Source: Escherichia phage Eps7. From it: a stretch of DNA of 64,000 nt. The stretch is taken from sequence record NC_010583.1; one strand, given 5' to 3'. Positions 9,429-64,000 of the stretch are shown here, piece after piece. The notes under the pieces were generated by a model. That model saw only the letters and a program-made list of their open reading frames with translations. It was not told where the DNA came from and made no database searches. Every line of letters starts with the position of its first letter. The first letter of the stretch is position 1. The position numbers and the translations under genes were made by a program.

Positions 9429-9546
9429 GTTCGAAGATTACGTGTAACTATTACTTGTTACGCATATCCATGATCATTTGACCATCGTAGCCAGTACCAA
9501 CAACAGTCTGCGGTACACCACCTTGTATTTTTCAGCACGAAGCATT

Positions 9547-10395
9547 TCAAACTTCCAGCTGCTTCCAACGAATCATTTCAGGAGTAATGGTACGTTGCAG
9601 CGCGGCGTTAGCTTCAGCTTCTTTCTTAGCTGCGTACAGTTTAGCATCTGCGTCACGTTCGTTAGCTACTGCCATGTTTTCACGAGCAGAACGATCAGCT
9701 TCAGCTTGCTTAACTTTCTGCTGTGCTTCTTGTTCAACACGAGCCAATTCAGCTTTAGCGGCGTTAACTTGTTCTTCACGAACTTTTGTGTTTTGTACCT
9801 GTTCCATGATTACAGGTGGCAGAGTAATATCCTGAAGGAATACTTGCTTAACCGTGTAACCATAAGGACGCGCGTACTCTTCTACTTCTTGCTGAATAGC
9901 AGTTTGCAGTTGAGCCTGAATCTTAGCGTCGAACAGATCTTGTGCTTTTGGTACAGACTTACCAAACTCACGAATCGTAGATAGCATCTTCTCTTCAACG
10001 TACTTGTTCAGAGCTTGATCCTGAGTACCTGCGTTAACACGGTTCATAGGAGCTTTAGCACCATCAAACTGCAACATAACGGTAATGTCAACAGTGGACT
10101 TAAACTTATCCTGGCTAGGAACCTGAAGTTTATCCAGTTTCATGGAAATATCTTTCGTACTAAAAGTATCAAAAGAAGCAAATGGGTTAACAATATGGAA
10201 GCCTGGCAATACAGGATTAGGGCTAACTTTACCCAGGAAGGTTTGGGTCTTAACAGTACCATCCTGAACAACTGTGTAGGAATTGAGAGCCAGAATAAGA
10301 GCGCCAAGACCAACTACAGCACCAACACCCCAACGTTTGATAGTGCGAATTACTTTTTGCTCAGAAGTCAGTTCTTTAGTGTTTTTAGTAAACAT
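9547..10395 (-). CDS. SPFH/band-7 (stomatin/prohibitin/HflC-like) domain protein; C-terminus probably extends to about 9451
   Basis: N-terminal TM segment, SPFH-like core, Ala/Glu/Gln-rich coiled-coil tail; two in-frame stops within 30 nt flanking an open alternative frame. Confidence 0.6.
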   Translation of the reverse strand: MFTKNTKELTSEQKVIRTIKRWGVGAVVGLGALILALNSYTVVQDGTVKTQTFLGKVSPNPVLPGFHIVNPFASFDTFSTKDISMKLDKLQVPSQDKFKSTVDITVMLQFDGAKAPMNRVNAGTQDQALNKYVEEKMLSTIREFGKSVPKAQDLFDAKIQAQLQTAIQQEVEEYARPYGYTVKQVFLQDITLPPVIMEQVQNTKVREEQVNAAKAELARVEQEAQQKVKQAEADRSARENMAVANERDADAKLYAAKKEAEANAALQRTITPEMIRWKQLEV

Positions 10396-10406
10396 ATATT
10401 TCCTTA

Positions 10407-10607
10407 TTATTTAGAAGAGTTAGCTACTACAGTTACTTTAGTTGCAGAAATAAACAGGCTAGCATCCACAGCAAATTCAGGAGCTTTGATATCTCCATTA
10501 TGAAATATGACTATACCGGAGACTACTTCAAATGCTAGTGCTGTAACATCGGTGGTATTTACTTGTGAATGTTCACCTACTACTTTTACTATATATCGTG
10601 TTTTCAC
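10407..10607 (-). CDS. NfeD-like short OB-fold protein (66 aa), partner of SPFH protein
   Basis: Beta-rich 66-aa protein (YIVKVVGEHSQV...) immediately upstream of and co-oriented with the SPFH gene. Confidence 0.4.
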   Translation of the reverse strand: MKTRYIVKVVGEHSQVNTTDVTALAFEVVSGIVIFHNGDIKAPEFAVDASLFISATKVTVVANSSK

Positions 10608-10633
10608 TTTATTTTCCTAGCAGTTAATAAAAT

Positions 10634-10709
10634 TGGCCGAGGTGACAGGATTCGAACCTGCATAAAGGAATTTAGAAGACTCCTGCCTATCCCTTAGACT
10701 ACACCCCGT
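10634..10709 (-). tRNA. tRNA-Arg (anticodon UCU; tentative)
   Basis: T-arm acagg/attcgaa/cctgc, acceptor cgaggtg/caccccg, anticodon arm ggaat-ttagaag-actcc. Confidence 0.6.
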
Positions 10710-11791
10710 TTAGGTATTTTTAAGAACTCTTATAAAAGCTCTTAAAGATACCCGACGGTAGGTAGGGTCAGCCCCCTCAGATTAAGCTCTGCAGCCCTTC
10801 CGTCAGACAATATCTTCCAGTTTAAGTCAGGGTGACTTTGTGGTTATGTTCTCCGTATGTGAAGAACTCGGTTAGGCTTAGGTCATGACTCCCAGCCTAC
10901 TGCTGCCACTCAACAGGAATTATCGCGAATTACCTGTACTATTGGGCACCATTAGTGACATCTCTCATGTCAGCGTTTCCCACTCTCATATTCACGCGGT
11001 CTGTTAGAATCGCACCTCCGATTTTCGATGCGAAGCTGGATGCCTAGTCTCAGGTTAAACGGGGCACACACTAGGCAGTGATCCCGAGTTCCGAGTTTGG
11101 TTGAGGCCGTCAGGTTTCCTCGTGGTTTAGCTGTTTCGATTCTAACCTAATACTGATCAGGTGGCGTACCTCCTGAACCGTCATAGTATGTACTCCAGCA
11201 GCGAATGCTTATCCGGTATAAGCCCGAGTTATCCGATTCTTTCCAGAAGGAGCAGTAAAGCTCAATGTCAGCCTGTGAGCATCTGGCAGTGTTATCACAT
11301 AAGTCAGTTCGACACCCCACATTTTAGTGCCTGGTAGATCCCGAATGAAGCCCTCAGTCGTTAGACCTCCATCATTCATCAAAGATTTACGCTACCCACT
11401 ATTCGATGGACAATCGCCGCATTGTGGTATACATACGTTTTCACTTGCATCCTAGACGGGTCAGCGTTGAAAGTTATATGGGTTTCTCAAGCCCAACCTT
11501 CAGTCTTCTACCCCTGGGACACGCACCGTATTTCACACTGTGCCTAGCTCCTGTTGAGACCCATCGTTTTGTATAAATTAGAGAAGAGTTTAGAGGAGAG
11601 GTTTCAGACGCCTCATTTTACAAGAAGTCTCGAACCTATATTCGTTACTCTAGTCACTTGGCCGGATATACCGGACTGGACTCGGAACTCTAACAGGTGA
11701 TCATTCTTAACCCACCGACTCTATTCAGTGTCAGAAGCTATCACTAGGTGAATCGCTAAAGCTCACTCAGCGTAATCGGCTCGCTGTTCTC
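10710..11791 (-). ncRNA. candidate large structured non-coding RNA (about 1.05 kb), co-transcribed with tRNA-Arg
   Basis: No ORF of 60 aa or more in any frame over about 1.1 kb; stops dense in all frames; GC visibly higher than flanking genes; conserved promoter cassette at 5' end, tRNA at 3' end. Confidence 0.3.
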
Positions 11792-11838
11792 TAATTTATG
11801 AATCTATTATACAGAATTTTGGAACGTTTAGCAAATCA
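11792..11838 (-). promoter_or_regulatory. T5-type early promoter cassette driving the ORF-free region and tRNA-Arg
   Basis: RC: -35 TTTGCT, -10 TATAAT, conserved leader start; no ATG or RBS follows. Confidence 0.5.
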
Positions 11839-11842
11839 ATTT

Positions 11843-12286
11843 TTAATTAAATTCGCCAGCAACCTGAGCAGCAATGCCACCATCGTAACGACCAGGAAAC
11901 TCTTCCTTAATCGCTTTCATCAGCATACCCTTTGTAATCCCAGGATTCAACTTAACTAATTCTGCAAAGTATTTGCGAATCTCAGAATCAGATAACTGAG
12001 GCGGCAGATACTGTTGTAGCCATTTGTTCAGTATATATTCATACTGAGCAGACTGCAAGCTATAATTATCAAGGTCTTGACCGTGAAGTTTAGCTTTTGT
12101 CTGATTAATGCTTTTCAGTTGAGCTTTTAGATAAGATACAAACTGTTCAGAAGTAATGAAGTCTTTATCAACACGCTGAAGATCTCCGATTATAGTCTGG
12201 TAGCTTTTAGCTACTTCTTTATCAGAACCATCAACCTTAGATTCCTGCAAAGCCCTACGCAAAACATCTAGAATATTCTCTTCCAT
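11843..12286 (-). CDS. GatB/YqeY domain protein
   Basis: 147-aa protein with YqeY-like C-terminal motif NPGITKGMLMKAIKEEFPGRYDGG. Confidence 0.55.
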   Translation of the reverse strand: MEENILDVLRRALQESKVDGSDKEVAKSYQTIIGDLQRVDKDFITSEQFVSYLKAQLKSINQTKAKLHGQDLDNYSLQSAQYEYILNKWLQQYLPPQLSDSEIRKYFAELVKLNPGITKGMLMKAIKEEFPGRYDGGIAAQVAGEFN

Positions 12287-12290
12287 TATT

Positions 12291-12461
12291 TAATTCCCAG
12301 TGCTTGGTTAAAAGATTGTTCTGTCATAACTGCCGAGACTTTAGCGAAATCAAACTTCTTAGGGTTTGTAGTAATTTCAGCAACGTTAGTAGTTTTAACT
12401 GTTTTCGTAGTACGGATACCACGAGTATTAACACCAATAATTACAACTGATTTCATATTTC
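12291..12461 (-). CDS. hypothetical small protein (56 aa)
   Basis: ATG ORF MKSVVIIGVNTRG... immediately after the leader of cassette 12475-12520; manual translation. Confidence 0.4.
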
Positions 12462-12474
12462 GCTTCCTCTCATT

Positions 12475-12520
12475 AATTTATGAAAGTATTATACAGAAAT
12501 TTAAGGCTTTAAGCAATCGA
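12475..12520 (-). promoter_or_regulatory. T5-type early promoter cassette
   Basis: RC: -35 ATTGCT, -10 TATAAT, leader ...AATTAATGAGAGGAAG. Confidence 0.5.
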
Positions 12521-12524
12521 ATTT

Positions 12525-12992
12525 TTAAGTTTTCTTAACCACAGGCTTGTAGAACGTATGGCCTTGAATCTTCGTTGTTTTCTTAAACTTCTTTGTCCAG
12601 TACGGTTTATCTTTACCACTATGGAAGTATAACGCTCCATGTGTTGGATCTTGTGGTAAATCAACGTAGTATATCACTCTAGCTAAATTCTTAGCAACTT
12701 GCCAAGCCTCATCGGTTTTATCAACTTTTGGTCTCTTGGCCACCCAAGAGAACTGGTTAGACTGATATACTACTTTACAGTAAGAATCAGGAAAGTACCA
12801 GAGTTAACACGGTTTTTTAGTAACCTGTGCAACTGCGATCATTCCTTTAGTGCCCTCACCTCGTGCTTCGAAGTAGATATTTTTTGCAATGCAATCAATC
12901 TGCTTTGAGTCGTAGGTCGCATGACTATTGAAGCTATAGGTTAGGGCAGCTATTAAAAGCAAAGCTGCCTTCATTTTATTTACTCCGGCCAA
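12525..12992 (-). CDS. SleB/CwlJ-like cell-wall hydrolase with signal peptide (two apparent frameshifts)
   Basis: N-terminal signal peptide plus NIYFEARGE...AVAQV; middle ...NRVNSG.F.DSYCKVVYQSNQFSW and C-terminal ...ALYFHSGKDKPYW recovered across tracts at 12813-12818 and 12790-12791. Confidence 0.5.
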
Positions 12993-13297
12993 TCGTACTC
13001 AATACGATTAGGGCTTTCTTGATACCCTTCGTCTAAGAGATCATTACGCATGGTCTCTTTAGCTACTGGGTTCGAGGTTACTAGTACCACTTTCTTGGGT
13101 CTCTGACCAAATTCTAGGAGTAAACGAAGAATTTGATAACCTTCCATACCATCTACAGCCAGATCGTTATCCATATAAACGAAATGACCTGTGGTATCGG
13201 TTTTATTCAGAAACTCAATAGCGGCTTCGGGGGTTCGAATGATAATGTCCATTCCATGAAGGTTACGTACATCATCAATCAGAATATGAAAAATCAT
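12980..13297 (-). CDS. CheY-like receiver-fold protein (105 aa), function unknown
   Basis: Pattern ...IDDVRN...YMDNDL...G...KVVLVTSNP resembles a receiver (REC) domain. Confidence 0.4.
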   Translation of the reverse strand: MIFHILIDDVRNLHGMDIIIRTPEAAIEFLNKTDTTGHFVYMDNDLAVDGMEGYQILRLLLEFGQRPKKVVLVTSNPVAKETMRNDLLDEGYQESPNRIEYDWPE

Positions 13298-13323
13298 AAT
13301 AGCCTCGTCTCATCAATTTAAAA

Positions 13324-13372
13324 ATATATTATACAGAAAACTAAACTAATTAGCAAATACATTTTTAAATTG
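13324..13372 (-). promoter_or_regulatory. T5-type early promoter cassette
   Basis: RC: -35 TTTGCT, -10 TATAAT, conserved leader. Confidence 0.5.
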
Positions 13373-13736
13373 AGAGACTAGTAAACCGATAAACAGCCTA
13401 GAGGCGCCACAGGCCATATCTTATGAGCCATGTACCTTTGATCTAGGGTTTGAATCATCAACGAATACTTTGCATCTTTTAGCTTTAGAAGGTTAGAAGT
13501 TTGAGTTCTTTTAACTTTTCAGCTTTCATACTTGAGCGTTGATCTTTGAAGTTGTGTTGGTACTACCAACGACCGTTTTTACAGTTCAGCTTAAGAGGCT
13601 GGTGTAATAAACATAATCTCCAATAGATTATACTTTATAGTATGGTCAGCGGTCTTATTTAACCTCGTATTTCAACCGCTGCTGCGAGGTAAGATGCTTG
13701 GGCTTTCGTCTACCGATTTACTAGTCTTTTAAATTA

Positions 13737-14375: not shown

Positions 14376-14429
14376 TATTTGCTTCCTTATATGAAGTTTG
14401 AGATTTGAATTTGTTTTAAAAACGGTCTA

Positions 14430-14612
14430 TTACAGACCGATTGCCAGCATAGTGCGCAGAACAGTATCAGAACTGTTATCAATATTCGGATTGGCGCGAT
14501 TCAGCACGTTAAAGATTTTCTGGATGCCGGACTGACGCTCAGCCATACGACGCAGACCCAGGTTACGTTTTGCTACTTTACCATTTTTACGGACGTTTTT
14601 AGATACTGGCAT
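14430..14612 (-). CDS. hypothetical basic protein (60 aa)
   Basis: ORF directly after promoter cassette leader. Confidence 0.45.
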   Translation of the reverse strand: MPVSKNVRKNGKVAKRNLGLRRMAERQSGIQKIFNVLNRANPNIDNSSDTVLRTMLAIGL

Positions 14613-15385
14613 AATTATTTTCCTTTTGTTGTTCTCTCAAATTTATGAATATATTATACAGAATTTGGAGCTGAAAGCAAATCAAATTTTGATTTTTTTC
14701 GATCATGATGGCTACACAATAACTTTCAACTAAAGCATCGAATGCGGGATCATGTTTCACTGGATAGATTCCATAACGAATGGTATCCATCTTTTCCATT
14801 TTAGCTTTTGCCCAGCTAGCACCTTCGGCTTCTAGATCTTTATAGCTATAACCAGCTTGCATCCACTGATTACGGAAAGATCGAACGTTACCTAAGTTCC
14901 AGAATTTCCACGGAACTATTTCTTCATGGGTTCCGGCATGGAACGTATTTGCAGAGTAGATTGTCATATCAAACTCTGGGCCATTGCCGTAATACAGAGC
15001 ATTATCTCCTAGAGACAATTCCATAATGTTCTGAGCCATAGAGAAGGCAGCATAATTAGAGCCTACGTCATTAGTGCAGTGATGCTTACCATCACGGAAG
15101 GCAATCAGTTTAGGATTACGACCATTTAGAGCCTCCATAATATGGAGCGCAGATGGACTGTTTTTTAGCTTGATCCATCCAGAATGCAATAGTAGAGGCA
15201 GTTACCTTAGCACCCGCATTAAGCTGATCTTGAACGTCTAGAGTAACGAATACCAGATCAGGATCTTTATCAATTCCGTGCATCGCTACAAAAGCGAAAG
15301 AAGGCATTGCAATATGAGTAGTACCGCAATTTCCTGGAGTACCTAGAGATTCAATGTCCAGCATACCAAAGGGCTTGAATTTCAT
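14599..15385 (-). CDS. DEDDh-family 3'-5' exonuclease-like protein (frameshifted at T6 tract 15161-15166)
   Basis: Exo I-like LDIESLG, later H-x4-D (HDPAFD); two ORFs join when the A6 run on the coding strand is shortened to A5. Confidence 0.5.
14650..14695 (-). promoter_or_regulatory. T5-type early promoter cassette
   Basis: RC: -35 TTTGCT, -10 TATAAT, conserved leader. Confidence 0.5.
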
Positions 15386-15628: not shown

Positions 15629-15629
15629 A

Positions 15630-18682: not shown

Positions 18683-19537
18683 TTACACCGTAAATGGATA
18701 TGCAATAGCAGGATGGTGTTCATAGCCACGAACAGTAAAATCATCCTTACTTACCCACGTTAATACATCATCCAAAGTTCTAATATTTGGATTGATTTCT
18801 AAAGTAGGAGGTGCAAAAGGTTCACGATCGAATTGCTTGTGCTCCATCAGAACATTATACTGATCTTCATAGATATGAAGATTAATAATCTTTTGACGAG
18901 CAATACCTGGCTTAAGACCTGTAATCTGTGCCATAATAGCTAGAAGTGCATAGCATTGCACCATATTAAATACTTGGCCCAGCAAGAAATCATTAGACCT
19001 CTGGAAAGAGTTTAGGTATAGTGTATCACCTAAAATAGAGAATTGATGGGTATGCATACACGGACGTAGGCATCCTTTACGAAATTCCCCACGGGTTCCA
19101 AAAGTTAAAATTTCTCCACGATCGTCAATCCCTCTTTTCAAATTATGATAGACTTTGGCTAACTGATCAAATACCATACCATCAGAATTAGTCCAATGAC
19201 GTCCTTGAACACCATAGACTCGTCCCATATCATCCTCGCCTTTACGGAATGGATTACCTAGCCAGGCAATATTTTCATTTGCATTAGCATTCCATGTATT
19301 AACACCAATAGCGCGGAATTGTGCTGCTGAGTCGTACCCACGGAGATATCCGATCATTTCCATTATTGCTTGTTTAGCAAATGCTTTACGAGTAGTTACT
19401 AGCGGCAGTTCTCCTGCTCCTACGTTAAAGGTAAAGTCTGCATCAATAATGGTTAGGCAACGAACCCCTGTTCTAGGATTCGTTACCCATACACCCTCTT
19501 CAAGAATACGTTTTCCAGTTTCAATATATTGCTTCAT
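18683..19537 (-). CDS. thyA: thymidylate synthase
   Basis: Conserved ThyA blocks: PLVTTRK, active-site region [11 protein letters not shown] (PCH), [14 protein letters not shown] and YALLAIMAQ. Confidence 0.8.
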
Positions 19538-20062
19538 TTAAATATCACCAATTCTTGTAAGAATGAAAGCGTTTTATCTGCATTCTGTCCTGCCACATAG
19601 TCCATTCTAGTTGCCATTGAATTATAAGTAATATGATGATGCAGATGTACATCAGCAGATAATGGTGTGGCTGAAGTAATAGTAGAGATATACGCCATAT
19701 CTAGATGATTTTTTGACATACATTTCAAGAAGCAGAGTTGCTCCCCCTAATACTACAGTTACCTCTTCCTTGAGAAAATCAGGCAGACGGTATCCAATGT
19801 TGCTTATGCGTGTAGCTGATCTTATAGAGTTCGGTAGTGGTCTATTTGCATAAATAAATAGGTCAGAATCTCCTAGTATTCTTTTTTGCAGAGTCTCAGG
19901 GAATGCTAACCAAGTTCCTGCTCCTACAATAATATTGTCAGGTGCCAGAGAATCCAATGTAGCATAGAAGATATCTAGTTCTTCTTTGAAAGAACCCCAG
20001 GGGAGCTTACCATTGAGGCCGAACTCCCCATTCGGCCCAGTTGCATAGATTGCTGCTATCAT
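19534..20062 (-). CDS. frd: dihydrofolate reductase (frameshifted at T6 tract 19709-19714)
   Basis: N-terminal [22 protein letters not shown] and [10 protein letters not shown]; continues ...[12 protein letters not shown] in the next frame when the A6 run is read as A5. Confidence 0.6.
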
Positions 20063-21235: not shown

Positions 21236-21282
21236 AATATTATAGCAAATCTGGTAGCGATTAGCAAGTAAAATTATAAACT
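21236..21282 (-). promoter_or_regulatory. T5-type early promoter cassette (upstream of nrdB)
   Basis: RC: -35 CTTGCT, -10 TATAAT. Confidence 0.45.
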
Positions 21283-21756
21283 ATCAAGCTCCAATAGTTT
21301 AGCATCGCGCCATTCTATAGCATCCTCTAATTCTTTAAATGTTTTAGTATGTTTTACACCTTTCCTAGCTATTTGGACTTGATAAGATCCACTTGCTTTT
21401 TGGTGTATATTTTTAATACCTAACTTATTGTCCTTATGTGCTCCAACGTTCTTTCCATTACTAAATCTGTTAGAGGCTAGTAAATTAATTGCTCTATTAT
21501 CATGACGTATTCTATTATCATGATCTACTTCTTTTGGGATGTACCCATGCGTAATATAGAATGCTAGGATATGTGCGTAGTATTTTGTACCTCTTACCTG
21601 CATTACTATGTATCCTGAGCATTTTTCCAAAGAGCCTGCCTCTTTGCCTGCAAACTTAGTATTAAATGATTTATCTTCTCTAGGTTTGTGGGTAAAGATT
21701 CCGGTTTCTGGATTATAGTCAAATAACTCAGCTATTTCTTTGTATTTTTCTTCCAT
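21274..21756 (-). CDS. HNH homing endonuclease
   Basis: HNH motif VDHDNRIRHDNRAINLL...N; free-standing gene inserted between nrdA and nrdB. Confidence 0.7.
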   Translation of the reverse strand: MEEKYKEIAELFDYNPETGIFTHKPREDKSFNTKFAGKEAGSLEKCSGYIVMQVRGTKYYAHILAFYITHGYIPKEVDHDNRIRHDNRAINLLASNRFSNGKNVGAHKDNKLGIKNIHQKASGSYQVQIARKGVKHTKTFKELEDAIEWRDAKLLELDSL

Positions 21757-21811: not shown

Positions 21812-24204
21812 TTATAATTGACAACCACCAGATGCGCATCCAGCAGCAGCTTCCTCTCCTGCACCTCCACCATTTTCAGTGTTGAAGTTTGCATAATAAA
21901 AGGTTTTCCAACCGTACTTAACAGCAGTCATAAAGTCACGAACTACTACTGGGCCGGGAATGATTTCATTCTCGAACTTGGTGTAGTCATAGTACATATT
22001 CGTACTGATAGACTGGCTGAAGAATTTCTGCATGGTTGCTACCCATTTGATCCACTCGATACGATCTACATCATAAGCCAGTTTATAGCTCATTAATGTA
22101 TCCCAATCAGTTGCACCTGGAGCAATTGCAATTACTTTATTAACTGCACTACCCTTGATAGATACGATCTTACGGGGCGGTTCGATAGAGTTAGTAACAC
22201 CTAGCAGTACAGAGGAACTTTCACCTGGCATCTGAGCAGTCAGAACAGAGTTGCGCATACCATATTTCAGAATATCTGCACGCAGAGATTCCCAATCCAT
22301 TTCTAGACCTACAGTTACCAGTTCATCAACAGTTTTCTTGTACGTGTCGATTACCAGAGTTCCTTGCGAAGGCTTAGTACGATTAAACCAGTCACATGCA
22401 CCTTGTTCTTTAGCCAGACGTACAGAGGCTTTATGTAGGAAGTAGGACAGCTTTTCAGCTTCACGGTGAATCCAGTTACGTGCTTCAACACCTTCGTAAG
22501 CCAAACCTTCTGCTGCCATTGCACCTGCTGCGTTCATCAGACCAATACCAACGTTACGACGTTTCTTAGCCGTGTACTTCCATAGTTGGGAATGGGTAAT
22601 CCTGAATCTCGATGATTGTATCAACGAATTTCAGAAGGATGTAGCAAGTTTTCTCCCATTCAGCCAGAGATTCCATGCGGCCTAGTACAACACCACCTAA
22701 GTTACACAGAGATACTTCACCAATATCTTCTGGACGCATATCGTCTAACTGATCTTGGGTTTTATACAGTTCCGTAACGTGATGGAATGGACGGGTGGCT
22801 GAGTAATTCAACACAAAAGGGTTGGTCATACGAATCGGGTCAAGGAAGTTACCATGACGGTTAGATTCACCAATGTGATGAGCATACATACGCCCTGTTT
22901 CCATACGGATACGTAACCAAGTATCTAGGATTTCTTTTGCAGAGATTCTAGGAGCTGCTGGAATTGTTTTTCCTTCGTGGTCGATCTTTGTAAGAGAAGC
23001 CACACGTTTCTCCGCTGCCACGTAGATTTCTTCAAACTTAGCCTCATCTTCACCATAAAACGCTTCATGAACTTCTGGTGCGTAGAAGTAGGACATTAGC
23101 GTAATATCTTCGTTTTTCAGGTAACGTTTTAACAGAAGGTTGTTAAAGCTCAGAGAATAATCCATCTTATCGATTTTATTCTCGTCTGTAGCACGTTGCT
23201 GCTTAACCTGCATCAACTGAATGATTTCAGGATCGAAGTATGGATAAGACACAGTAGCAGAACCGCCACGGGTTTGCTGAGTGTTAGCTTTTACTGATCG
23301 GTCAATGTGTCGATAATATGGCAGTTTTCCGGAATGCGGGAATGCCCCATTTCGCACCGGATCAGCAATTGATCGGCTTTCAAGATGATACCCGATTCCC
23401 GCTCTGGCTGCGACCATTTTGAAGACGATGTGCTCGGCTGTGTCGATTGAATCCAGCGTGTCAGTGGAATCCACGAGACAGCAACTAGCAAATCCACGGT
23501 CACTAGAGCGCAGGCCAACCAGTGGCGGCGTAGGAACGTTGATTTTGTGGAGCGACATTGCATTGTAGAGGTCGATTGCATCTAGGATTGTCCAGTTAGG
23601 TTGAGATAACATCGCCATTGCCATACCCATGTAGGCAAACTGCGGGGTTTCATAAATTTCACCAGTTGCAATATTACGACGAGAATACTTGTCGAAGAAC
23701 TGTTTCAGTCCACCACTGGTGAATAAACGATCGCGATCATGATCAATAACTTGGTTCAGAGCGTCAAACTGATCATCGCTAATCCATGCACTCATGTCTT
23801 CCCAGCGCCAACACGAACCATATGATCGTGGAAGAAACGCAGAGAAGGGGTTCAAAGGAATCATATAGGCGTTTACGCATCTGCGCAAGACGTAATTCCT
23901 TTGCTACAGTATCATATGCTGGGTTGTCTTTGATAAGACCTTCAGCGGCTTTAATTAACACATCTTGGAGGGTATCGGAATCTACAACACCTTTTGGTAG
24001 ATTTTTCTGGGCAGACATAACGACGGCAGACCAACTTACGTCAGTTGCTTTACATGCCCATGCAGCCCAATCATTGAGTTTTTCAGGAGCAAAGTCCTGA
24101 ACAGTACCGTCACGTTTAATTACTTTTTCAATACTATGGCTCATTGGGGTTTCCTTTTTGTAGTTATCAGGATTTAGGAAATATTCTACTTTGTTTTGGG
24201 TCAT
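21812..24204 (-). CDS. nrdA: ribonucleotide reductase class Ia alpha subunit (three apparent frameshifts)
   Basis: ATP-cone N-terminus, catalytic core ...VIDHDRD..., ...RRNVGIGLMNAAG..., C-terminal CxxxGGC tail; fragments join at G4 tract 23847-23850 (restores FEPP), at 23799-23800 and near 22575-22581. Confidence 0.75.
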
Positions 24205-24511: not shown

Positions 24512-24811
24512 TTACACCTTCCCCATATCCTTAAAGATATCGTAGAATGCTTTAGACTCCGGTGAGCGAACGTTGTCGATCAGTTCGATCATAGAGAAAG
24601 GAGAGTTTTCGTACTTCTCATAGACTTCCATAAGAAGTGCTAGACCTGAATCACCCTTGATGTCTTTCTGAGCTATATCCCCACAGATAATTAAACGACA
24701 ATCTTGTCCTACACGAGTCAGGAGACAGATCATTGCTTCAACGGAGATATTCTGAGCTTCATCGACAATTACATAGGAGTTGTTGAATGTTGCCACGCTT
24801 TCTTGAACCAT
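24512..24811 (-). CDS. PhoH-like ATPase C-terminal-domain protein (short form)
   Basis: Walker B-like YVIVDEAQN and ...IICGDIAQKDIKG...SGL; Walker A absent; start may lie at 24845 if the T6 tract at 24823-24828 is an overcall. Confidence 0.45.
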   Translation of the reverse strand: MVQESVATFNNSYVIVDEAQNISVEAMICLLTRVGQDCRLIICGDIAQKDIKGDSGLALLMEVYEKYENSPFSMIELIDNVRSPESKAFYDIFKDMGKV

Positions 24812-24913
24812 TGCGGTTCTCTCTTTTTTGACGTGCTTTTCCCATAAATAACACTCCTATAGTGTACTTCGCTAACAGAGGATCAACAAAAAGATCTTGT
24901 TTATCAACTTACA

Positions 24914-27462: not shown

Positions 27463-27829
27463 ATGAAGAACGTAAGACATCTTAAATATCGCTTAATTTA
27501 CAACGGACGTATGGAAACAGAAGATCTAGCTCAGCTAGCGATCAATTCAGATGAAGTTACGGTTCGTGCTTTATCTATTGAGAAGCTGCGTGCTTCTTAC
27601 GAAAATCGTATTATGGAACTGGAGGAGAAACTGTATGGACTTCTTGAATCAGAATCTAAAAAATAATCTAGAAAACATGCTTATGGAGCAGTGGAACTCT
27701 GGGTATAATGCTGGGGTGGCTACTTGTATTGCGGGGTTGGATATGCTTATTAAGCAAGAAAAGGTACGTCCAGAAGAAGCAATTCTACTCCAAAATATCA
27801 TCGAAGGATTCAAGCAAGGAATCGTATAA
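27463..27829 (+). CDS. hypothetical protein (about 121 aa; apparent frameshift at A6 tract 27658-27663)
   Basis: ORFs 27463-27666 and 27551-27829 join in-frame if the A6 run is read as A5. Confidence 0.4.
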
Positions 27830-28643
27830 TGCGTAGACTAATCGTTGTTAGTGGTGCAGGTTTGAGTGTAGATAGTGGTGTTCGTGCTTTCCGTACTGAT
27901 ACTGCTAGTGGTAAAGCGTTGTGGGATGATTATGACCTAGAAGAGGTATGTAATATTCATGCCTTTCGTGGTAATTTTACCATAAAACTCATATGTTTTA
28001 CAACAAACGTCGTGAAGAGTTACAAACTGTTGAACCTAACCTAGCTCATTTGCGTATTGGTGAATGGTATAAACGGTATCCAAATCAAGTGGTAAACCTT
28101 ACTACCAATGTTGATGATCTAATCGAACGTGCTGGAGTGCCGAGAGAAGATATACTCCATATTCATGGATATCTGAAAGAAATTATTGTAGAGCATGCGT
28201 TCGACCAGACACGTGATGTTATTGATATTGGGTATAGTTCTATTGATCCAGATGACTTTGATTGGGTTAAACCTAACGTTATCTTCTTTGGTGAGGTTGC
28301 TCCTGCCTATAAAACAATGTATGAGGTTTTTGATGGTATCACCAGTCATGATATGATCATCATTGTTGGGTGCTCTAACCAAGTAATTAACTTCTACTGG
28401 GAGCTATTTCCTGTTCTGAATCTTACTGCTGCAAAACTTATGGTAGTTAACTATTACGATAGTGCAGTAGCTATGGAACCAGGCTATCAGGGCATGACTC
28501 GTAGTGAAATGTATCAGTTAGAAGAACGTGGTATTCCTTACTGGAGTAAAGGTGCTGTGGATGCCTTTAGTGATCCCGATTTTATTGCTCGTGTGGAAGC
28601 TCATCTAGAAGGTAAACCCTATGTTCAACAAAAGCATGTGTGA
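27829..28643 (+). CDS. Sir2 (sirtuin)-like NAD-dependent protein (frameshifted at A4 tract 27984-27987)
   Basis: N-terminal GAGLSVDSGVRAFR (compare sirtuin GAGIS.ESGI..FR), central NVDDLIERAG...ILHIHG, later IIIVGCSN; two ORFs in adjacent frames. Confidence 0.55.
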
Positions 28644-37393: not shown

Positions 37394-38172
37394 ATGAAAA
37401 TCGAAATTCCAACACAATGTCCCTCTTGTGGTTCTAAGCTAGATCTTGTCAACGGGCAATTATTCTGTAGGAATAAGTCCAACTGTCCAGCGCAATCAAG
37501 TAAGTTAATCGAGAACTTCTGCACAAAAATGAAGTTAAAGGGCTTTGGCCCGAAAACTATTGAGAAGCTGGAGCTGACTAAGATCTCAGAACTGTTTTAC
37601 CTGACCGAAGAAGATTTGGTCGGAGCTGTGGGTAGCAAGGTTGCCGCTAAATTGATTAGCGAGTTAAATACAAGGTTCGCGGAGACATTGACTTTGGTTC
37701 AGTTCTCGGTTCTTTAGGAATTCCTCTTATTGGAGAGGTTGCAGCAAAGAAACTGTCCCAAAATTGCACTAGCTTCCACGATGTGAAGGCTGACGGCAAG
37801 GCTGGAGAAAATTACAAAACCTGGCTAAATTCCCCACAAGGCAAGGATGTTATTGAATTACCGTGGAAATTCTCAACTGGTATCCGAGGTGCTAAAGCTG
37901 ACATCATCATTACAGATGATTTAGTTGCCCAGCCAAATGGAATCACGGTCTGTATTACCGGATCTTTGCAAGATTTTGCAAATCGAACGGATGCAACAAA
38001 CTATTTAGAAAGTCTAGGGTATACGGTTAAGAAGTCCGTTACCAAAGACGTCAAATACCTAATCTGTGAGGATGAATCAAAACGTTCTTCCTCATCTTAT
38101 AAGAAAGCCGAAACGAATGGGATAGAAATCCTGTCGATTAAAGAACTATTGGAGAAAAATAATAATGTCTAA
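37394..38172 (+). CDS. ligB: NAD-dependent DNA ligase, C-terminal subunit (Zn finger, HhH, BRCT); frameshifted at T3 tract 37713-37715
   Basis: Zn-finger CPSCGSKL...[10 protein letters not shown], HhH ([14 protein letters not shown]), BRCT-like VCITGSL...; a T4 tract gives ...[13 protein letters not shown] matching LigA ...FLYALGIREVGE. Confidence 0.65.
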
Positions 38173-52018: not shown

Positions 52019-52100
52019 CTTATTTAGTAAGGAGTTGTTTTACTAATTCCTTTATTTTATTAATCTTTTTTTTTTTGAAAGGGTGCAAAACGAACCTCTT

Positions 52101-55642: not shown

Positions 55643-57701
55643 TTACCTTATATGGATATACCCACTATTTAGGTCTATCTTCATCTTGTAGTATGCTTCA
55701 GGGTTTCCTGATAACGCAGCATTTCTATCGTAGATTATATTAACACCTATTTGTGATAAGAAGGCATTTCCTGCCACAATCTTATCAGCAGTTACAGTTC
55801 CATTAACAATCATGTTGCCATGAAGAACCATTGCAGGGTTAATCCATCCAGCCCCGTTCCATTGACGGGTAAATGCTGTTTGTGGAGCATTACTGTTAAA
55901 TTGTGTTAGAACATCGTATTTAACCGGAGGTTTTCCAAAGTTATTTTGAAAGAATGCGTTAGCTTGTCCATCATCCCAACCGCCTAATCCAGGAATACCC
56001 ATGGAGTACATCCCAGGACCACGCTGTCCATCATGTCCTATAGTACCTTCAGTACCACTCCATTGAACTACATCAGACCAGCTAGTACCTTCAAGAAGTT
56101 TGTTAGTAACTGGATCAAGTGTACCTGTAGTCGCATAGATATTTTGTGTCATATCTGTACGATTAGGTGGAGTTTTTGACCAACCAGGAGGTGGATAATC
56201 TTGTTCTAACGGTTTGGCCGGTAAAGATGTTGCTAACTTATAAACAAATACTGTTTGCTTACCTTGTAAACCAGTTCCAATATCTACGTCACCATTTGGT
56301 GTTCCAATTACTACACCACTAGAAATACGCAGAGTAGTACCATCATAACGTATCCATTGTGTAGCATTACCAATGTCTAACTTAGCTTTGGCAGAGGTAT
56401 TATCCATACCCATCCAAATACCAGAGTTATTATCTCCCCAAGATTTACCTTGAGTATAAATTGCTGGATTATCTTTACCAGATAAGTTAGTCATGATAAA
56501 GTTCGCAGCATTAATATCTCTAGTAATTACTTTACCATCGACGTTAACAACACGATTTATAGGGTCGAAAGAAATAGGTGCTTTTCCTTCTTCATCTAGC
56601 AGACCAATGTTAATAGCACCAGTAGCTGCATCAATTAAGAATGTCTGTCTCCAGATTTCTCCATCTTTCATACTACCCTTAATAAAGGCATAGTTAACAT
56701 CAATACCAGTCTCATTGACAAAACTATTATCTAGAGGAGTATCTTCATTCAATATAAATGTTACAGGAGCTGATTCTGTTATATCTTGCTTATTTGGTCC
56801 CCAGGCAATTGATGAAACCTTAAAGGTATGTTCAACTTTCCATGGGAATGATATAATCGTTGCAGCTCTAGCAGCACCCACGTTTATCTTTTGAGCTTTA
56901 GCCCATCCGGTTTTAGCGTATTCCTCGGAGTTTATATAAGTAACCAAGAACTCACGAACGTTAGCACCAGCACCACGTTCCCATTCCCACTCAATTCTAA
57001 CATCATATCGTTCTTTACCATCAGCAATTCGTGCAGCTTTAAAAACAATATCGATAGGTGCAGTAGGTGGAACAAAGTTATAAGCTACAGTTAGAATATT
57101 AGGAAACTCGTAGTATCCTGAAGAATCAACTGTAACACCATCAGGCATAGTTACTTGACCAGATATTCTGATCTTATAGTCTCCGATAGGAACTCCACCA
57201 AATTTAATAGTAGAACCTAAAGCCCCAATATAATATTTAGTCCAAGGACTGTCTTCAGTGGCTGTACTTTTTAACTCAATAGTACAGTAACTTGCTTCAC
57301 CAGTTGTTTCCACAACAACTATCGGTGCGCCCACCCCAACATCCACAGGTTCTGACTCAGATCTTGCTGCGACAATTATTGGCTTCTCTTTTGTTTTAAA
57401 GTTAGTTTCATTAGAGAGGTTAATACCAATTTTTGCATTTAAAAGTTCTGAGTCAATAATCGAGTCATAAAAAAGCTCCCTGAACCTGATAGGTAGTTGA
57501 GGGAGTTAAATTATTGATCATAACAAAGAAAGTGTCGATTCCAGTGAAATCTCTTCTATCCACTTCTTCGCCAAGTTTAAGCCAGAATGATCTACCGATA
57601 ACATCGTAGTCGGTATAGATAGAATGCTGGATATACGCCATCGTATACCCAGTCATAATACTATTTAAGACCATCTTGGCTGGTGCATTATTCGAAATCA
57701 T
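55643..57701 (-). CDS. pb4: baseplate/central fibre protein pb4-like (frameshifted at A6 tract 57469-57474)
   Basis: Combined length about 685 aa (T5 pb4 is about 688); 78-aa and 567-aa ORFs join when the T6 run on the coding strand is read as T5. Confidence 0.65.
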
Positions 57702-60551
57702 TTAAATAGATGCCCAATCCACAGATTGCTCGCCATTATCACCTTCTGCTCTTATACGGAAGCGTAACTTCCTATTAATACCCAGAGCATCCTCATTATG
57801 AAGAGCATAGTCTGCCTTATTGTATATCAGTAGATAATCGTAGACATACTGATCTTCAATTCGTACACTTCTTAATAAACGATCTAGGTTATCGTAGATT
57901 TCGAGAGTGTAGAAGATTCCATCAATGATATCTTCTTCTGGAATTCTATCCCAGGCCAATTTAACGTCTGGTCCTACAAACTCCGAAGCATCTCCTGAAG
58001 CTGTATTAGTAACCCTGAAGTTACTAACGACGCTTAAGTTTTTAGCAGAGTTAAGTTCTACTGATAATGTTACAGGAGAACTTCGTCTACCATTAATATC
58101 TACAGCTCTAATCTCAAAGACTGCTAAACCAGCAGGTTCTCCAATAATTTCTTGGATCATTCGTAGATTTGGATTAGTTTCTAGTTGCTGTACGATATAA
58201 GGATCAGCATGTCCAGAATGAACGATGGAGTAATAAACAACGTTATTAGTTAAGCTAGGAAGCCAAGATAGCTCACCATTCTTACCAATAGACCCTACTT
58301 GTCCACCTGGTGTTGGTGTATACATAAAGTCTCTAGGAGGCAGTACGTTATTACTAACATCAGGGATATCGTTACCACTATTATCAACCTGCTCGGAGTT
58401 AATGAATACATCCTCACCATACTCTTGCAGTGTAATATTAATCTTACCTTCTCTAGAGTTTTCAACTTCATCAACTAGGAAGTATTTCTTATCCCAACCA
58501 TAACGACCATATGTAAAAGCAACCGGATCGTTAGGCTCAATACCTATGAAATGATATGGTAATGAGAATGTGAGAGTTCGTGAGTAACGAGATTTTTTCA
58601 GTTCTCTATCTGCAAAGCTACGTGCAGTATAATAGTTAGTGATGTTTGCAAAAGAAAGCTGAAGTTTTTTATCTAATCCTTTATCTTGTTCTTTAAATAT
58701 AGAGTTAAAGAATGTAATGGAGTTAGTTTTCCAGCTTAATGCGGGATCTAGTATAGAGGCCTGTACTGAGTTGAATTTATTTCTGCCAGTAGTATCTGAC
58801 AATTCCAGATCACCATAGGTATCTAAGAAGTCAATCTCCAGTGGAGTATTCGAGAACTTCTCAACAGTTATTCTATACTGACCAGATAAGTTGTTGATAG
58901 CACCCCCATAAGACTCTATTAATCCCTGCACGTTTTTAAATACTGACTCAGAGGTATCGAGAATAGTGTTCATTTGAACTATTTGTCTATTCTCTCCTAC
59001 AGCATCAGTCCATCCAACGTATCTCCAGTAGGGTTGCCAAGAAACCTGATAGGATTCATCAATTATATCCAGAATAGCTGCTTCTTGAATAAGTTGCTGG
59101 AGAGGGAACTGATCAATAGTGATATTAGCACCATAGCGATCAGAGGTTAGGTAGTCCAGAGTTTGCCAGATACCATTTAAGCTAGTCTTATCAGCAGTTA
59201 CTCTACCATCTGAATGATAGATCTTAATCTTCTTACCTTGAACTTCAGCGCTAACTTCTGGAATTTCTGTTCTGTTTTCATTAATAGTAAAGCGAACAAT
59301 AGCGTAAGCAGTATCTAACAGTTTATAACGAGAGTCCCAGTATTCTGGTCCATTCTCATTCATGTTCTGTAGGTAGAAACCTTTCTCTTTTGCAATGTTA
59401 ACTAGAACATCCGCAGCAGATTGGTCTGCTTTACCATGATAAGTCCAGATACGTATATCGCCATTACCATCGTTATACCTATATTCCTGTCCATGAACAG
59501 AGGGTTCAGAGCTTGATTGACCAGAAGCAATACGTTGCATGGTATCTCCAGCTACTTTCTTAGTACCAAAGCAAGTACGAGACTTACTATCGTTAGGATC
59601 AATACAGATCATTGGTACATCACCAAAGTAGAAATCTAGAAATCCATCAATCTCACCCTCACAGAAGGCATATACTATATATACGATATTAGGGTTATGC
59701 AGCTCAGTATCCGCAAATACGGGGATTCCAGGGATTTTCTGAGTTCCATACACTACTGGAAGGAACTTAGCCGCTAAGTTAAAATCGATGTCAACTTCCT
59801 TAGTCACAGTCTCATAGTATTTCTTTAGGCTATAGCTTCTAGAAAGACCAAATAACTTTTTCTTAGACTGTAACTTGTAACGTTCTTCCTGAACCTGATA
59901 CTTAGCGAGAATAGAAATACTTTTATTAGCATGGAAGAATCCGTAGTCCTCTTGATACTCAGGTCGCTTAGCACCATTAGATGGAACTAATTGGCCAGCA
60001 ACAATCTCAAGTCCCCTATGGTCAGCATCGTCTGTGAAACGTCCGTTTACTCTATCAAAGTCGTAAAACTGGTTCGAACAGTTCCATGTGATAGTGGATG
60101 TGCTAATTCCAGAAGTACCAATGTTATCCTTAATACCACCACCAGTGATTTTACCACGGAAGTAAAGTAAAGGACCATTAGTGTCTGGATCCACAGGAAG
60201 AATGTTACCTTCTTCATCAATAACCGCTTGATGGATTGAGATGGATCTATCTAGGAATGATACACCATTTTGGACTAGTTTTAATACTTCATCCTCAGCA
60301 GTACCTGTGATAGTAAAAGAAAGACTACCAATGGAAAGATCTCTATTTTGTTTATGTGTTGTTATAGACTTAACCTTACCGGATGTATAAAGAATCCCAT
60401 TATATCTTACATCTCTAAAATAATCTGTAAGATATATGTAGGCAGAACTTGATCCAGTAGAGCTTGGCAATTCAAGAGTAATAAGGCATGCAGTTTTTAT
60501 TTTATTATTAGTTCTTAAATACTCTCTTGCACTGTCAAGAATTTTCTTCAT
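57702..60551 (-). CDS. pb3: baseplate hub protein pb3-like (949 aa)
   Basis: Length identical to T5 pb3 (949 aa); between distal tail protein and pb4 homologs. Confidence 0.75.
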   Translation of the reverse strand: MKKILDSAREYLRTNNKIKTACLITLELPSSTGSSSAYIYLTDYFRDVRYNGILYTSGKVKSITTHKQNRDLSIGSLSFTITGTAEDEVLKLVQNGVSFLDRSISIHQAVIDEEGNILPVDPDTNGPLLYFRGKITGGGIKDNIGTSGISTSTITWNCSNQFYDFDRVNGRFTDDADHRGLEIVAGQLVPSNGAKRPEYQEDYGFFHANKSISILAKYQVQEERYKLQSKKKLFGLSRSYSLKKYYETVTKEVDIDFNLAAKFLPVVYGTQKIPGIPVFADTELHNPNIVYIVYAFCEGEIDGFLDFYFGDVPMICIDPNDSKSRTCFGTKKVAGDTMQRIASGQSSSEPSVHGQEYRYNDGNGDIRIWTYHGKADQSAADVLVNIAKEKGFYLQNMNENGPEYWDSRYKLLDTAYAIVRFTINENRTEIPEVSAEVQGKKIKIYHSDGRVTADKTSLNGIWQTLDYLTSDRYGANITIDQFPLQQLIQEAAILDIIDESYQVSWQPYWRYVGWTDAVGENRQIVQMNTILDTSESVFKNVQGLIESYGGAINNLSGQYRITVEKFSNTPLEIDFLDTYGDLELSDTTGRNKFNSVQASILDPALSWKTNSITFFNSIFKEQDKGLDKKLQLSFANITNYYTARSFADRELKKSRYSRTLTFSLPYHFIGIEPNDPVAFTYGRYGWDKKYFLVDEVENSREGKINITLQEYGEDVFINSEQVDNSGNDIPDVSNNVLPPRDFMYTPTPGGQVGSIGKNGELSWLPSLTNNVVYYSIVHSGHADPYIVQQLETNPNLRMIQEIIGEPAGLAVFEIRAVDINGRRSSPVTLSVELNSAKNLSVVSNFRVTNTASGDASEFVGPDVKLAWDRIPEEDIIDGIFYTLEIYDNLDRLLRSVRIEDQYVYDYLLIYNKADYALHNEDALGINRKLRFRIRAEGDNGEQSVDWASI

Positions 60552-61162
60552 AGACTTTCCCTCAAGGAAAGTGAAATACCAGTATATGTACCATTGCTAT
60601 TTAACGTAGAGCCGAAGCTGTCTCCATTCATTAATTTAGTTCTAAATAGAATACCATTAAATACCGGTTTCTCACTACCCGTAGTAGTAATGAATAGATC
60701 AGGATAAACACTTATATTCCAAGTATTTCCTGCTGTGTTGATAGAAGTGATTTTATACACTTTTGGATGATTGGACAACTTAAATAAATCTCCTGGTTTA
60801 GGCAGTCCACGAAGTGTACCTTTAGTGTCCATAATAACTGTTGAACCTTTTTGTCCAGCAGGAATATTTACAGCACTAGTATCACCACGAACTCGGAAAG
60901 CCTCATATTGTGGTAATAACACATCAATATAGCTACCTGTTCTTTTATAATCTAGGATGAATGAGTCTAATTTAGCAAATTCATCTGGGAATAATTCTGG
61001 ATAAGAGATATTAATACCCCAATATTGAGCAGACACCTTAACCTCCCTAACTTTACCATTAGGTAATTCATCACGAATCATAGGGTCATTGTCTACTAAG
61101 TTAACGCTTTCAAAACCTAACCCTGATAGCTCTGGGTTCGTGTATGGGTCTGGTAGTCTCAT
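60548..61162 (-). CDS. pb9: distal tail protein (Dit, T5 pb9-like, 204 aa)
   Basis: Size and position immediately downstream of the tape-measure gene. Confidence 0.7.
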   Translation of the reverse strand: MRLPDPYTNPELSGLGFESVNLVDNDPMIRDELPNGKVREVKVSAQYWGINISYPELFPDEFAKLDSFILDYKRTGSYIDVLLPQYEAFRVRGDTSAVNIPAGQKGSTVIMDTKGTLRGLPKPGDLFKLSNHPKVYKITSINTAGNTWNISVYPDLFITTTGSEKPVFNGILFRTKLMNGDSFGSTLNSNGTYTGISLSLRESL

Positions 61163-61184
61163 AGTTAATTTCTCCTCTTAATAA

Positions 61185-61220
61185 CAATATTATAATAGGA
61201 TTGGAAAATTTTATCAAGAA
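61185..61220 (-). promoter_or_regulatory. sigma70-like promoter upstream of pb9-like gene
   Basis: RC: UP element AAAAATAAAAATTT, -35 TTGATA, 18-nt spacer, -10 TATAAT, RBS AGGAG. Confidence 0.45.
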
Positions 61221-61229
61221 ATTTTTATT

Positions 61230-61263
61230 TTTCCATAAAGAAAGGAGGACATAAAGTCCTCCT
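61230..61263 (-). terminator. intrinsic terminator after tape-measure gene
   Basis: Hairpin ggaggac-ataaa-gtcctcc followed on the minus strand by a U-rich run. Confidence 0.5.
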
Positions 61264-61269
61264 CCAGTA

Positions 61270-64000
61270 TTAAGAATTACCAAGTGATTTCAGGGTGGTT
61301 CCATTCTCATTAAGAGCCTGTTCCACGGCATCCCTGAAAGCAGCACTGTTACTCGAAGCAAAGTCTCGGAAGCTAGCCGCATCCATCGTACTGATGTTCA
61401 GCACAATAGGCCTACCCGATGTACCCTTTGAAGATCCTTTGAGTTCATCAGTAGGAGTAGCCTTCATCGGAACCATAGGAGTGATTACTTCGGTACCATG
61501 CTCACCCATCTGGTAACTAACTCCAGGGTACATATTACCACCTTCTGCACGAGGTACGAAAGAGTTCGCATTACCAATCCCTTGATCTCCTCGAATATAA
61601 GAAAGTTCTCCTGCGTTAGCCGACATAGAAACGTCTACGTTCTTCTGGCGCTCTCCAAGAGACAAGTATTGAGCTGTCTCAGTACCCGAGTCTCCAATAG
61701 AAGACATACCAGATGCAGAGGATGCTTGTGCAAGAGACAATGCACCTGCAACACCTGCTGCAATCATAAGAGGGATAGACCACGGGTAAGGAACAGCTGT
61801 TGCTGCTTGCATCACCGCTACTGCCGTCTGAATTATGATCTGCTTCTTAGCTGCGTCTTGCTGGATCTTAACCTTTTCCGCTTCCAGTTTCTTGAGCTTA
61901 GCTTTAGATGCTTCGGATTTACCGTCACGTTTTTGCTCTGCTGCAATAGCCTGGTCAATAGCTGATACTTGATTACTTACTCCCATAGCAATCATTGAAG
62001 AAACCATCTGCATACCTGCCGCCACAGTGCTAACAGTATCTAAAGATCCCTGAGAGAACTGCATCATGGCATTAGTAAGATTTCCCATACTCTGGCCAAC
62101 TTCCGTTGCTTGGCTATTTAATGCTCCAAGTTTAGAAATAGCTTCGTCGTAAGAGGCCATCTGGTTCTGCATATCAGCATACTTCTTATCATCCCCAGAT
62201 AAACCAGTCGTAGGAGTATAAGTAGCTCCAACAGAAGAACCTACCTGTTGCTGCATCTGAGCATTACGTTGTGCTGTTAAAGCCGACATCTGAGCCCTTG
62301 TCTTGGCTATTTCAGCATTCCAGCGCATTTGCTCGTTAGCATTACCTTTGGTAAGTTCTTTCATCTTGGTATAAAAATCTAACTGCATTTCCATTTTTTT
62401 GCATTTCCCCTGCCAGAGGGAACATGGAAGTTAGAGTATTTTCAAAGGCTTCTTGCCTTTTACTGGTCATTTCAGCTTGCTGGTCTTGGCGGAATTTCCA
62501 GATTTCACGCCCTATCTGTGCTTGAGCACGTCTTGATTGTTCAGCTTCTTTCTGCTTATCAGCTTGTTTTGTATACCATTCGTACTTCTCTTTTTCAATA
62601 GTCAATTCAAGATTTAACTGTGCTAGACGATACTGAGTATCTGTCATAGTACGGTTATTTAAGAGAGCTATTTCACGATCAACACCAAGAATCTTATCCG
62701 TATAGTCCTTAACTTTCTTCTGAGCTTCCATGTCCTGGTTAGTAATTTTGATACGTTCTAACTGAACCTTAGCTATTTCATTCTCAATTGCCTTGTTACC
62801 TTTGTTAGTTTCTAGGACACGCTTAAGAGCTGCTTCCTGTTCTTCTAACTGTTGGATTTCTAGACGTCTACCCGCTTCCTGTGCTTTCTCTTTATCCTTG
62901 GTCTGGTTGTACACTTCGGCAATCTTTTGCTGAACTTCTAGCTGATTTTTAGTCTCATTACTAGTTAATTTTACATAACCAGCAAGAGCTTGTGAGGCAG
63001 TCTTCATCTCACTAAGAGTATTATACCCTAAGTTCAGACTCTTAACATACTCATCAGCATTTTTACCAGTGCCGGCAGATAGAGACTCAATAGTCTTAAT
63101 CGTATCCGATAGGGATGCACTAGTTTTAGCCGCAGTATTAGTATTTTCGGCAATGTTCTGGATATCGTTAGCTAAATCACTAGCAGTTTTCTTAGCCTGA
63201 TCATATGCTTTCTGCTGTTCCGTCAGTCCTTTCAGAGTTGCGGAGTTAAAGTCATAAACCGCATCAGGGTCATTCATATCCTTCTGCAGATTAATCTGCT
63301 TCTGAAATTCTGGATTAGTCTTAGCAGCCGCAGCACCAGCAGCTTGATACGCAGATTTCCAAGCATTAAGGTTTTCAGTAGAGTCATCAACTTCTTTACC
63401 TAACCTTGCTACCTGTAGTCCCATAGCTGCGGTTTCTTCTACAAACTTTTTGTTAGCTTCGGAAGAACCTATGCGCACTCCCCCTACTTCAAATCCCCCA
63501 GCAGCTAATCCAACAGGCATTCCCTCACCCACTAATCTAATAGCGGCAGCAGTACTAGCATCTGCTTGGGACATACGTTTATCAAACTCAGTCTTTAGTT
63601 TATTACGCTTATCCAGAGACTCTTTATACATATCAAGAGCTTTATTATATCCTTCCTCGGAAGCGGAAAGACTTAAAGCTACAGCACCAACGTTAGTTGG
63701 GTCAATCTGACGGTTAGTTTCTTCTTGTGCTCTAGCAGCAGAAGCCGAGATAGATGCTTGAGAAGTATAGAATACTGCGTTAATAGAATCAATTACCGGC
63801 CCTAAATACTTAGCAGCAGCCTGTTGAACCTTTCTTAGTGCAGCATCAGCGTTAGCAGCAAACTGTTCCCATGGAGTTGCACGGAGTACGTCATCCAAGT
63901 AGCCGAAACGTTTAGTAGATTCAGCAATTACTGCGTTAGCATATGCTTGTTGCTTTTGGAAAGTGGAAAGACTATTGACGTTATATGTGATACCTGTGTT
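61270..64000 (-). CDS. pb2: tail tape measure protein (T5 pb2-like), N-terminus beyond window; frameshift at T7 tract 62364-62370
   Basis: Ala/Gln-rich coiled-coil, frame open to window edge; ORFs 62342-63898 and 61270-62394 join if the A7 run is read as A6 (...AGEMQKMEMQLDF...). Confidence 0.75.

Follow-up and report, generated by a model that had tools for sequence, protein, structure and literature searches.

Frame-breaking single-base indels in nine genes of the deposited phage EPS7 genome are very probably errors of the record

The sequence studied here is the 2008 GenBank/RefSeq record of the T5-like phage EPS7 (CP000917/NC_010583), from which one stretch of 64,000 nucleotides (nt), referred to below as the window, was analyzed. 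EPS7 is the namesake of the genus Epseptimavirus, and NC_010583 is its RefSeq record; the genome is 111,382 bp in length and its proteins are annotated under ACB975xx/YP_0018370xx. Inspection of the window on its own had led to the proposal that at least 13 of its genes are interrupted by +1 or -1 frameshifts at homopolymer tracts, and that these are probably sequencing errors rather than pseudogenes (hereafter, the original prediction). Comparison with related phages bears out this proposal for nine genes, whose insertions and deletions (indels) are absent from every relative that covers each site and are termed private here, while four of the listed sites are otherwise explained and only about half of the events lie in runs of four or more bases. 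The nine genes are listed below with positions in the window and with the bases gained (+) or lost (-) in EPS7.

9451..10395, minus strand: SPFH/Band 7 gene (Pfam Band_7), with a private -1 at 9525 and +1 at 9549
12525..12974, minus strand: SleB-like cell-wall hydrolase (Pfam and alignment), with -1 at 12792-95 (A run from 4 to 3) and +1 at T6 12813-18 (from 5 to 6)
14682..15385, minus strand: Rv2179c-like 3'-5' exoribonuclease (Pfam and alignment), with +1 at T7 14693-99 and +1 at T6 15161-66
18683..19537, minus strand: thyA, its open reading frame (ORF) left open, with a compensated +1 at 19092 and -1 at 19100-04
19534..20062, minus strand: DHFR gene, with +1 at T6 19709-14 and a private 3-nt deletion at about 19625
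21812..24204, minus strand: nrdA, split into three ORFs, with private indels at 22577 (+1), 22797 (-1), 22809 (-1), 22818 (+2), 23804 (-1) and 23849 (-1)
37394..38172, plus strand: NAD-dependent DNA ligase subunit B, with a T missing at 37672 (TACTAAGG to TACAAGG), where there is no homopolymer
55643..57701, minus strand: pb4 straight-fibre gene, with a private +1 at A6 57469-74
61270..64000, minus strand: tape measure gene pb2, which runs past the end of the window, with a private +1 at T7 62394-62400

The nearest matches of the window in megablast searches were T5-like Epseptimavirus phages, at 97-98% identity, and no phage record searched reached 100%. Seven close relatives were compared (PSa2, SB6, BSP22A, Seafire and three IMG/VR genomes), together with 20-34 distant T5-like genomes per site, counted only where the site was covered; the remaining IMG/VR relatives, tequintaviruses of ~85% identity, served as outgroups only. 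The syntenic regions of PSa2, SB6, BSP22A and Seafire were aligned to the window and every alignment gap was listed. This revealed 31 indels that set the window apart from all four of these phages, or 32 when the tape measure site is included. Private indels that disrupt the frame within conserved coding sequence numbered 19-20 across ~49.5 kb, and the same genes of the four relatives contained no ORF-breaking private indel. Gaps private to one of the four were considered as similar damage and rejected, being alignment noise at places where variable genes diverge locally; the annotated coding sequences of these genes are intact. In the other T5-like genomes that cover a site of the nine genes, the indel was likewise absent. 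Several truncated products of the window match exactly proteins that are present in the databases from EPS7 only, namely those of the tail fibre (807 amino acids, aa; ACB97589.1), DHFR (136 aa), SPFH (282 aa), PhoH (99 aa) and pb4 (567 aa) genes, and most truncated forms are singletons among a collection of 15 billion proteins. The intact pb3 and nrdB products and the two Sir2 pieces are likewise identical to annotated EPS7 proteins. A search of later papers found no published remarks on errors in the EPS7 sequence.

In three of the nine genes, little besides the indels separates the window from PSa2. In the SPFH gene, for which a frameshift had been placed at about 9528-9551, the coding strand has lost one base at 9525 (CC to C) and gained one at 9549 (TT to TTT), and the shortened product is the EPS7-only protein ACB97530.1. 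The SleB-like gene (450 nt) differs from that of PSa2 by no substitutions and two indels, and its repaired product is identical over 150/150 aa; the sites anticipated for it at 12813-12818 and 12790-12791 correspond to the private T6 and to the A3 at 12792-94. The same holds for the exoribonuclease-like gene (702 nt), in which two indels and no substitutions separate the window from PSa2, with 234/234 identical aa once repaired. Here the original prediction had recognized the insertion at T6 15161-15166, and Pfam supports its use of the word exonuclease, but it had overlooked the second insertion at T7 14693-99. Several relatives label this gene as a metallopeptidase, a circulating annotation that looks wrong in view of its Pfam assignment. 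In thyA, which had gone unremarked, the compensated pair turns the conserved TFWNPGEF into TFGTRGEF (WNP to GTR), and repair gives a product identical to that of PSa2 at 284/285 positions. The extra base proposed in the T6 of the DHFR gene is indeed private to EPS7, and its product compares with one of 176 aa in relatives.

The nrdA gene carries seven indel events, set against unique substitutions of which five are synonymous and none is non-synonymous. All three of its proposed sites (G4 23847-23850, 23799-23800 and near 22575-22581) were recovered as private indels, at 23847-50 (-1), at about 23804 (-1) and at 22577 (+1), and a further -1/-1/+2 cluster at 22797-22818, previously missed, rewrites the catalytic NLCVEITQPT as NPFVLNYSAT and so destroys the NLCxE motif. 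Since the compensated clusters leave the thyA and mid-nrdA reading frames open, inspection of ORFs alone is blind to them. An ORF for an HNH homing endonuclease lies at 21274-21756, between nrdB and nrdA; it is present in SB6 and absent from PSa2, and thus represents ordinary mobile-element variation.

For the ligase gene, a lesion had been correctly suspected but assigned to the wrong site, T3 37713-37715. The true lesion is the T missing at 37672, which is present in 34/34 relatives; repair at the site first proposed leaves 13 residues out of frame and creates a motif that the orthologue does not contain, whereas alignment-guided repair yields 260/260 identity to PSa2, from which the gene differs by one substitution and one indel. 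The insertion in pb4 was found as proposed at A6 57469-57474, a tract that reads A5 in 34/34 relatives, and this extra A is the sole difference from BSP22A and Seafire over the 2,485 nt of the LtfC and pb4 block; repaired pb4 matches PSa2 at 684/686 positions. In the tape measure gene the T7 insertion is also private, although it lies at 62394-62400 and not at 62364-62370, which reads TCTTGGT. Two relatives with identical context carry an in-frame T6, and the repaired product of this variable gene matches that of PSa2 at 846/910 positions (93%).

All ten genes that were repaired became full length with no internal stops, at 97-100% identity to PSa2 apart from the 93% of the tape measure. Among substitutions unique to EPS7 in the broken genes, 36 were synonymous and three non-synonymous, a ratio of 0.024, compared with 0.076 in intact genes; judged from these substitutions, selection is not relaxed in the broken genes, which are at least as constrained as the intact ones. 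In T5 the tail proteins pb2 and pb4 are essential, and a host range has been described for EPS7, which forms plaques. Because the indels are private, are cleanly repaired, lie in constrained genes and strike essential tail genes of a phage that forms plaques, error is the best reading, and the one-base indels of the nine genes, like those of two small genes and two tRNAs upstream, are very probably errors in the deposited consensus and not features of the phage. The privacy, the clean repair and the unrelaxed selection are seen directly in the comparison, and from them we infer that sequencing was the cause.

Several observations weigh against this conclusion. Of the 19-20 coding indels, 16 affect genes that the phage could plausibly do without in the laboratory (nucleotide metabolism, SPFH, SleB), as would also be expected of real loss. 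At two sites of the original prediction, in a Sir2-like gene and in the tail fibre gene, matching frameshifts occur in independent assemblies, so that not every lesion may be assumed to be an error. In addition, private indels are about five times denser in non-coding than in coding sequence, which implies that some real indel variation is mixed in. The proposition that the frameshifts are sequencing errors rather than pseudogenes is thus well supported for nine genes and is wrong or unsafe at the PhoH, A6 27658, Sir2 and tail fibre sites, which are considered below.

The distribution of the private events agrees in part with homopolymer miscalling. As had been noted, runs of at least five bases are mostly one base too long and shorter runs one base too short, and private +1 expansions account for 10 of the 25 runs of at least six bases found in the window. 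However, runs of at least four bases hold only ~11 of the 20 events; six are in runs of two or three, and three (19092, 22577, 37672) in no run. As a label, typical homopolymer miscalls thus fits only about half of them, and locally poor sequence explains the rest. Clusters of +1 and -1 events lie 8-50 nt apart and are concentrated at 9.4-24 kb, which points to low coverage or to reads of poor quality in these patches. Two types of error are present on this reading: long A/T or C runs read with one base in excess (5 to 6, 6 to 7), and short patches in which bases in doublets, triplets or non-repeated sequence were dropped or added, often as +1/-1 pairs. EPS7 resembles draft genomes with indel errors in that the changes are of single bases, are confined to one record, lie in many cases at runs, leave fragments in adjacent frames and are repaired perfectly against orthologues. 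Unlike the usual errors of draft genomes, only about half lie in runs of at least four, many form +1/-1 pairs, and some ORFs (thyA, mid-nrdA) are left open.

The remaining sites of the original prediction involve the following features.

24512..24845, minus strand: PhoH remnant, with an out-of-frame deletion of 419 bp at about 24788-24797
27463..27829, plus strand: two small overlapping genes around A6 27658-63, with no frameshift
27829..28643, plus strand: Sir2-like gene, split at T4 27975-78 into ORFs of 71 and 216 aa
52265..55215, minus strand: L-shaped tail fibre gene, split by -1 at C4 52805-08 into an 807-aa ORF and a 181-aa Peptidase_S74 chaperone ORF

The alternative that survives best, although it is quite unlikely, is that the indels are real mutations in the EPS7 stock, i.e., genuine recent pseudogenes arising from relaxed selection during laboratory propagation. 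Most of the genes hit are accessory or have functions that the host also provides (nrdA, DHFR, thyA, PhoH, SPFH, SleB, Sir2, L-shaped fibre), the essential replication block at 25-52 kb contains a single coding lesion, and real frameshifts exist in relatives at the Sir2 and tail fibre sites. Nevertheless, pb4 and pb2, which encode essential tail proteins, are broken as well, none of these indels occurs in any of the more than 30 relatives, and under neutral decay substitutions should far outnumber indels and be mainly non-synonymous, which is the opposite of the observed 36 to 3. Five genes (SPFH, SleB, thyA, nrdA and the PSa2_00100 orthologue described below) also contain compensating +1/-1 pairs at distances of 8-46 nt, which independent mutations would not be expected to produce. 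Neither shared descent nor neutral decay, by which a pseudogene would be recognized, was seen in the nine genes.

Shared descent was seen in the Sir2-like gene, in which T4 is linked to the PSa2-type 3' haplotype. A frameshift had been proposed at A4 27984-27987; one does exist, but it lies at T4 27975-78 and is not private to the record, being common to PSa2 and MET_P1-197_41 with the same 71-aa and 216-aa ORFs. The gene is a mosaic, SB6-like up to ~27945 and PSa2-like from ~28187. As T4 falls within this recombination interval and is shared with PSa2, the split is read as a lineage allele, and the simplest interpretation of the alignment is that the frameshift is probably real and was inherited with the PSa2-type segment. 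The Sir2-like gene of the window thus carries the same lesion as the split genes of PSa2 and MET_P1-197_41, which are genuine phage pseudogenes or split accessory genes, whereas no partner record carries the lesion of any of the nine other genes. In BSP22A and Seafire, the Sir2-like gene is longer and has a divergent middle segment.

Immediately upstream, the frameshift once assigned to A6 27658-27663 did not withstand comparison. This tract is the same in 26/27 relatives, T5 included, and the downstream ORF is preceded by a GGAGGAG ribosome-binding site of its own, 7 nt ahead of an ATG at 27635. Both ORFs are under strong purifying selection, with ratios of non-synonymous to synonymous polymorphism (pN/pS) of 0.027 and 0.037, and no Pfam match was found for either. 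These are two genuine overlapping genes and not one broken gene.

A second alternative, very unlikely in itself, attributes the lesions to cloning or assembly and not to base calling, either through deletions and rearrangements in shotgun clones of toxic phage genes or through a consensus built from single reads of low quality. The PhoH region counts in its favour. A possible slip in its T6 tract at 24823-24828 had been raised, and this run proved to be unchanged; the actual lesion is the 419-bp deletion, which lies between the imperfect repeats GTTGCCACG and GTTCGGCCACG (9-11 bp) and removes the P-loop. An in-frame deletion of 417 bp was considered and rejected after the flanks were re-registered. 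When a 110-nt query spanning the junction was searched, 433 phage records matched, and every match listed consisted of two pieces 419 bp apart, spanning 529 nt; the deletion was found in no other record among the matches listed. It could be real or an artefact of cloning or assembly. The tight patches of indels in short runs and non-homopolymer sequence, mostly at 9.4-24 kb, would also fit such an origin, while the +1 events in long runs are spread over the window (3, 4, 1 and 2 per region). Moreover, this explanation overlaps with that of consensus error, since both place the lesions in the record, and it is not a true competitor.

At the tail fibre, the -1 proposed at C4 52805-52808 stands, as the tract is an in-frame C5 in 54/54 phage records, but its reading as an error is unsafe because an unrelated assembly has a frameshift of independent origin there. 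In the window, the frame is lost 46 residues ahead of the S74 domain, which is thereby detached. A phage contig from the Salmonella Derby data set SRR3182272, for which NCBI submitters and Logan produced separate assemblies, codes for the same 807-aa product and a separate Peptidase_S74 protein of 173 aa. Descent of this frameshift from an ancestor shared with the Derby contig was rejected when the alleles were inspected: the Derby contig reads TTCCCCC and the window TTTCCCC, where the common allele is TTTCCCCC. A different base is thus deleted, and the Derby -1, in the adjacent run, is independent of that in the window. The fibre gene of the window shows 1-2 mismatches to the intact genes of Seafire and BSP22A, and is thus closer to them than to the Derby contig, with 6. 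Short S74 ORFs are annotated separately in KKP_3822 and GRNsp8 as well. The L-shaped fibre of T5 is dispensable for plaque formation, which makes a real lesion plausible, and given the rest of the record, error and real lesion are equally plausible at this site. The T5-type L-shaped fibre carries an autocleaved C-terminal Peptidase_S74 chaperone (PMC4728585). As in known losses or truncations of this type of fibre, the EPS7 frameshift separates the S74 domain from the remainder of the protein.

The fibre allele of the window reads TGG GGA AAG and so contains an in-frame G GGA AAG heptamer, at which a -1 slip would regenerate the intact ...YWGKDWIA. This heptamer is presumably the -1 slip site of the phage lambda G/GT genes. 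The window shares it in the right frame, but it is not conserved, and the gene of the relatives is in frame. Conceivably, the fibre gene has, in the G5A3 tract close to its 3' end, a genuine and recurrent hotspot for -1 changes by which the Peptidase_S74 chaperone is detached, slippage at the heptamer then supplying a little intact fibre and hence a leaky, tunable phenotype; this scenario is improbable. Least credible of all is the general proposal that tail proteins are regulated through some of the tracts, chiefly those of pb4, the tape measure and the tail fibre, acting as sites of programmed ribosomal frameshifting or of phase variation. In its favour are the slippery A/T or G character of the runs, the restoring slip at the fibre heptamer and the independent Derby deletion. 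Against it, relatives are in frame at all three genes; conservation would be expected of a programmed site and length polymorphism of a phase-variable tract, and pb4 and the tape measure show neither; G GGG AAG, as found in the Derby contig, is not among the canonical slip sites; and scanning metagenomes for the tail fibre tract, whatever its allele, gave 0 matches.

Errors in the deposited consensus, the preferred explanation for the nine genes, have practical consequences. The truncated EPS7 forms of DHFR, PhoH, pb4, the fibre and SPFH stand in RefSeq and UniProt as real proteins, and the seemingly intact ThyA holds a corrupted active-site motif. Comparisons of gene content, core-genome counts, family seeds and structure predictions based on this record inherit ~14 damaged genes. 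Although the findings are biologically ordinary, they provide a curation note on a reference genome, with ~20 sites to correct or verify and four lesions that should not be corrected automatically.

Further damage lies upstream of 9451, outside the range covered by the original prediction, in two small genes and two tRNAs.

Within 2829..3287, minus strand: tRNA-Pro (C6 2852-57) and tRNA-Gly(gcc) (A6 3259-64), with a private +1 each
3739-3923, minus strand: PSa2_00087 orthologue, a small conserved hypothetical gene broken by -1 at 3837
6271-6607, minus strand: PSa2_00100 orthologue, a small conserved hypothetical gene broken by -1, +1 and -2 at 6469-6495

Each tRNA thereby exceeds its PSa2 counterpart by one base. 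In non-coding sequence, private small indels occur in groups of three within 12-25 nt at 9314-9325, 11736-11761 and 7388-7412, and may represent real divergence or further sequence of low quality. Finally, a T11 run at 52066-52076, in the intergenic terminator between the convergent replication and tail blocks, differs in length in every relative (-4, -2, +1, +2) and is a naturally hypervariable run.

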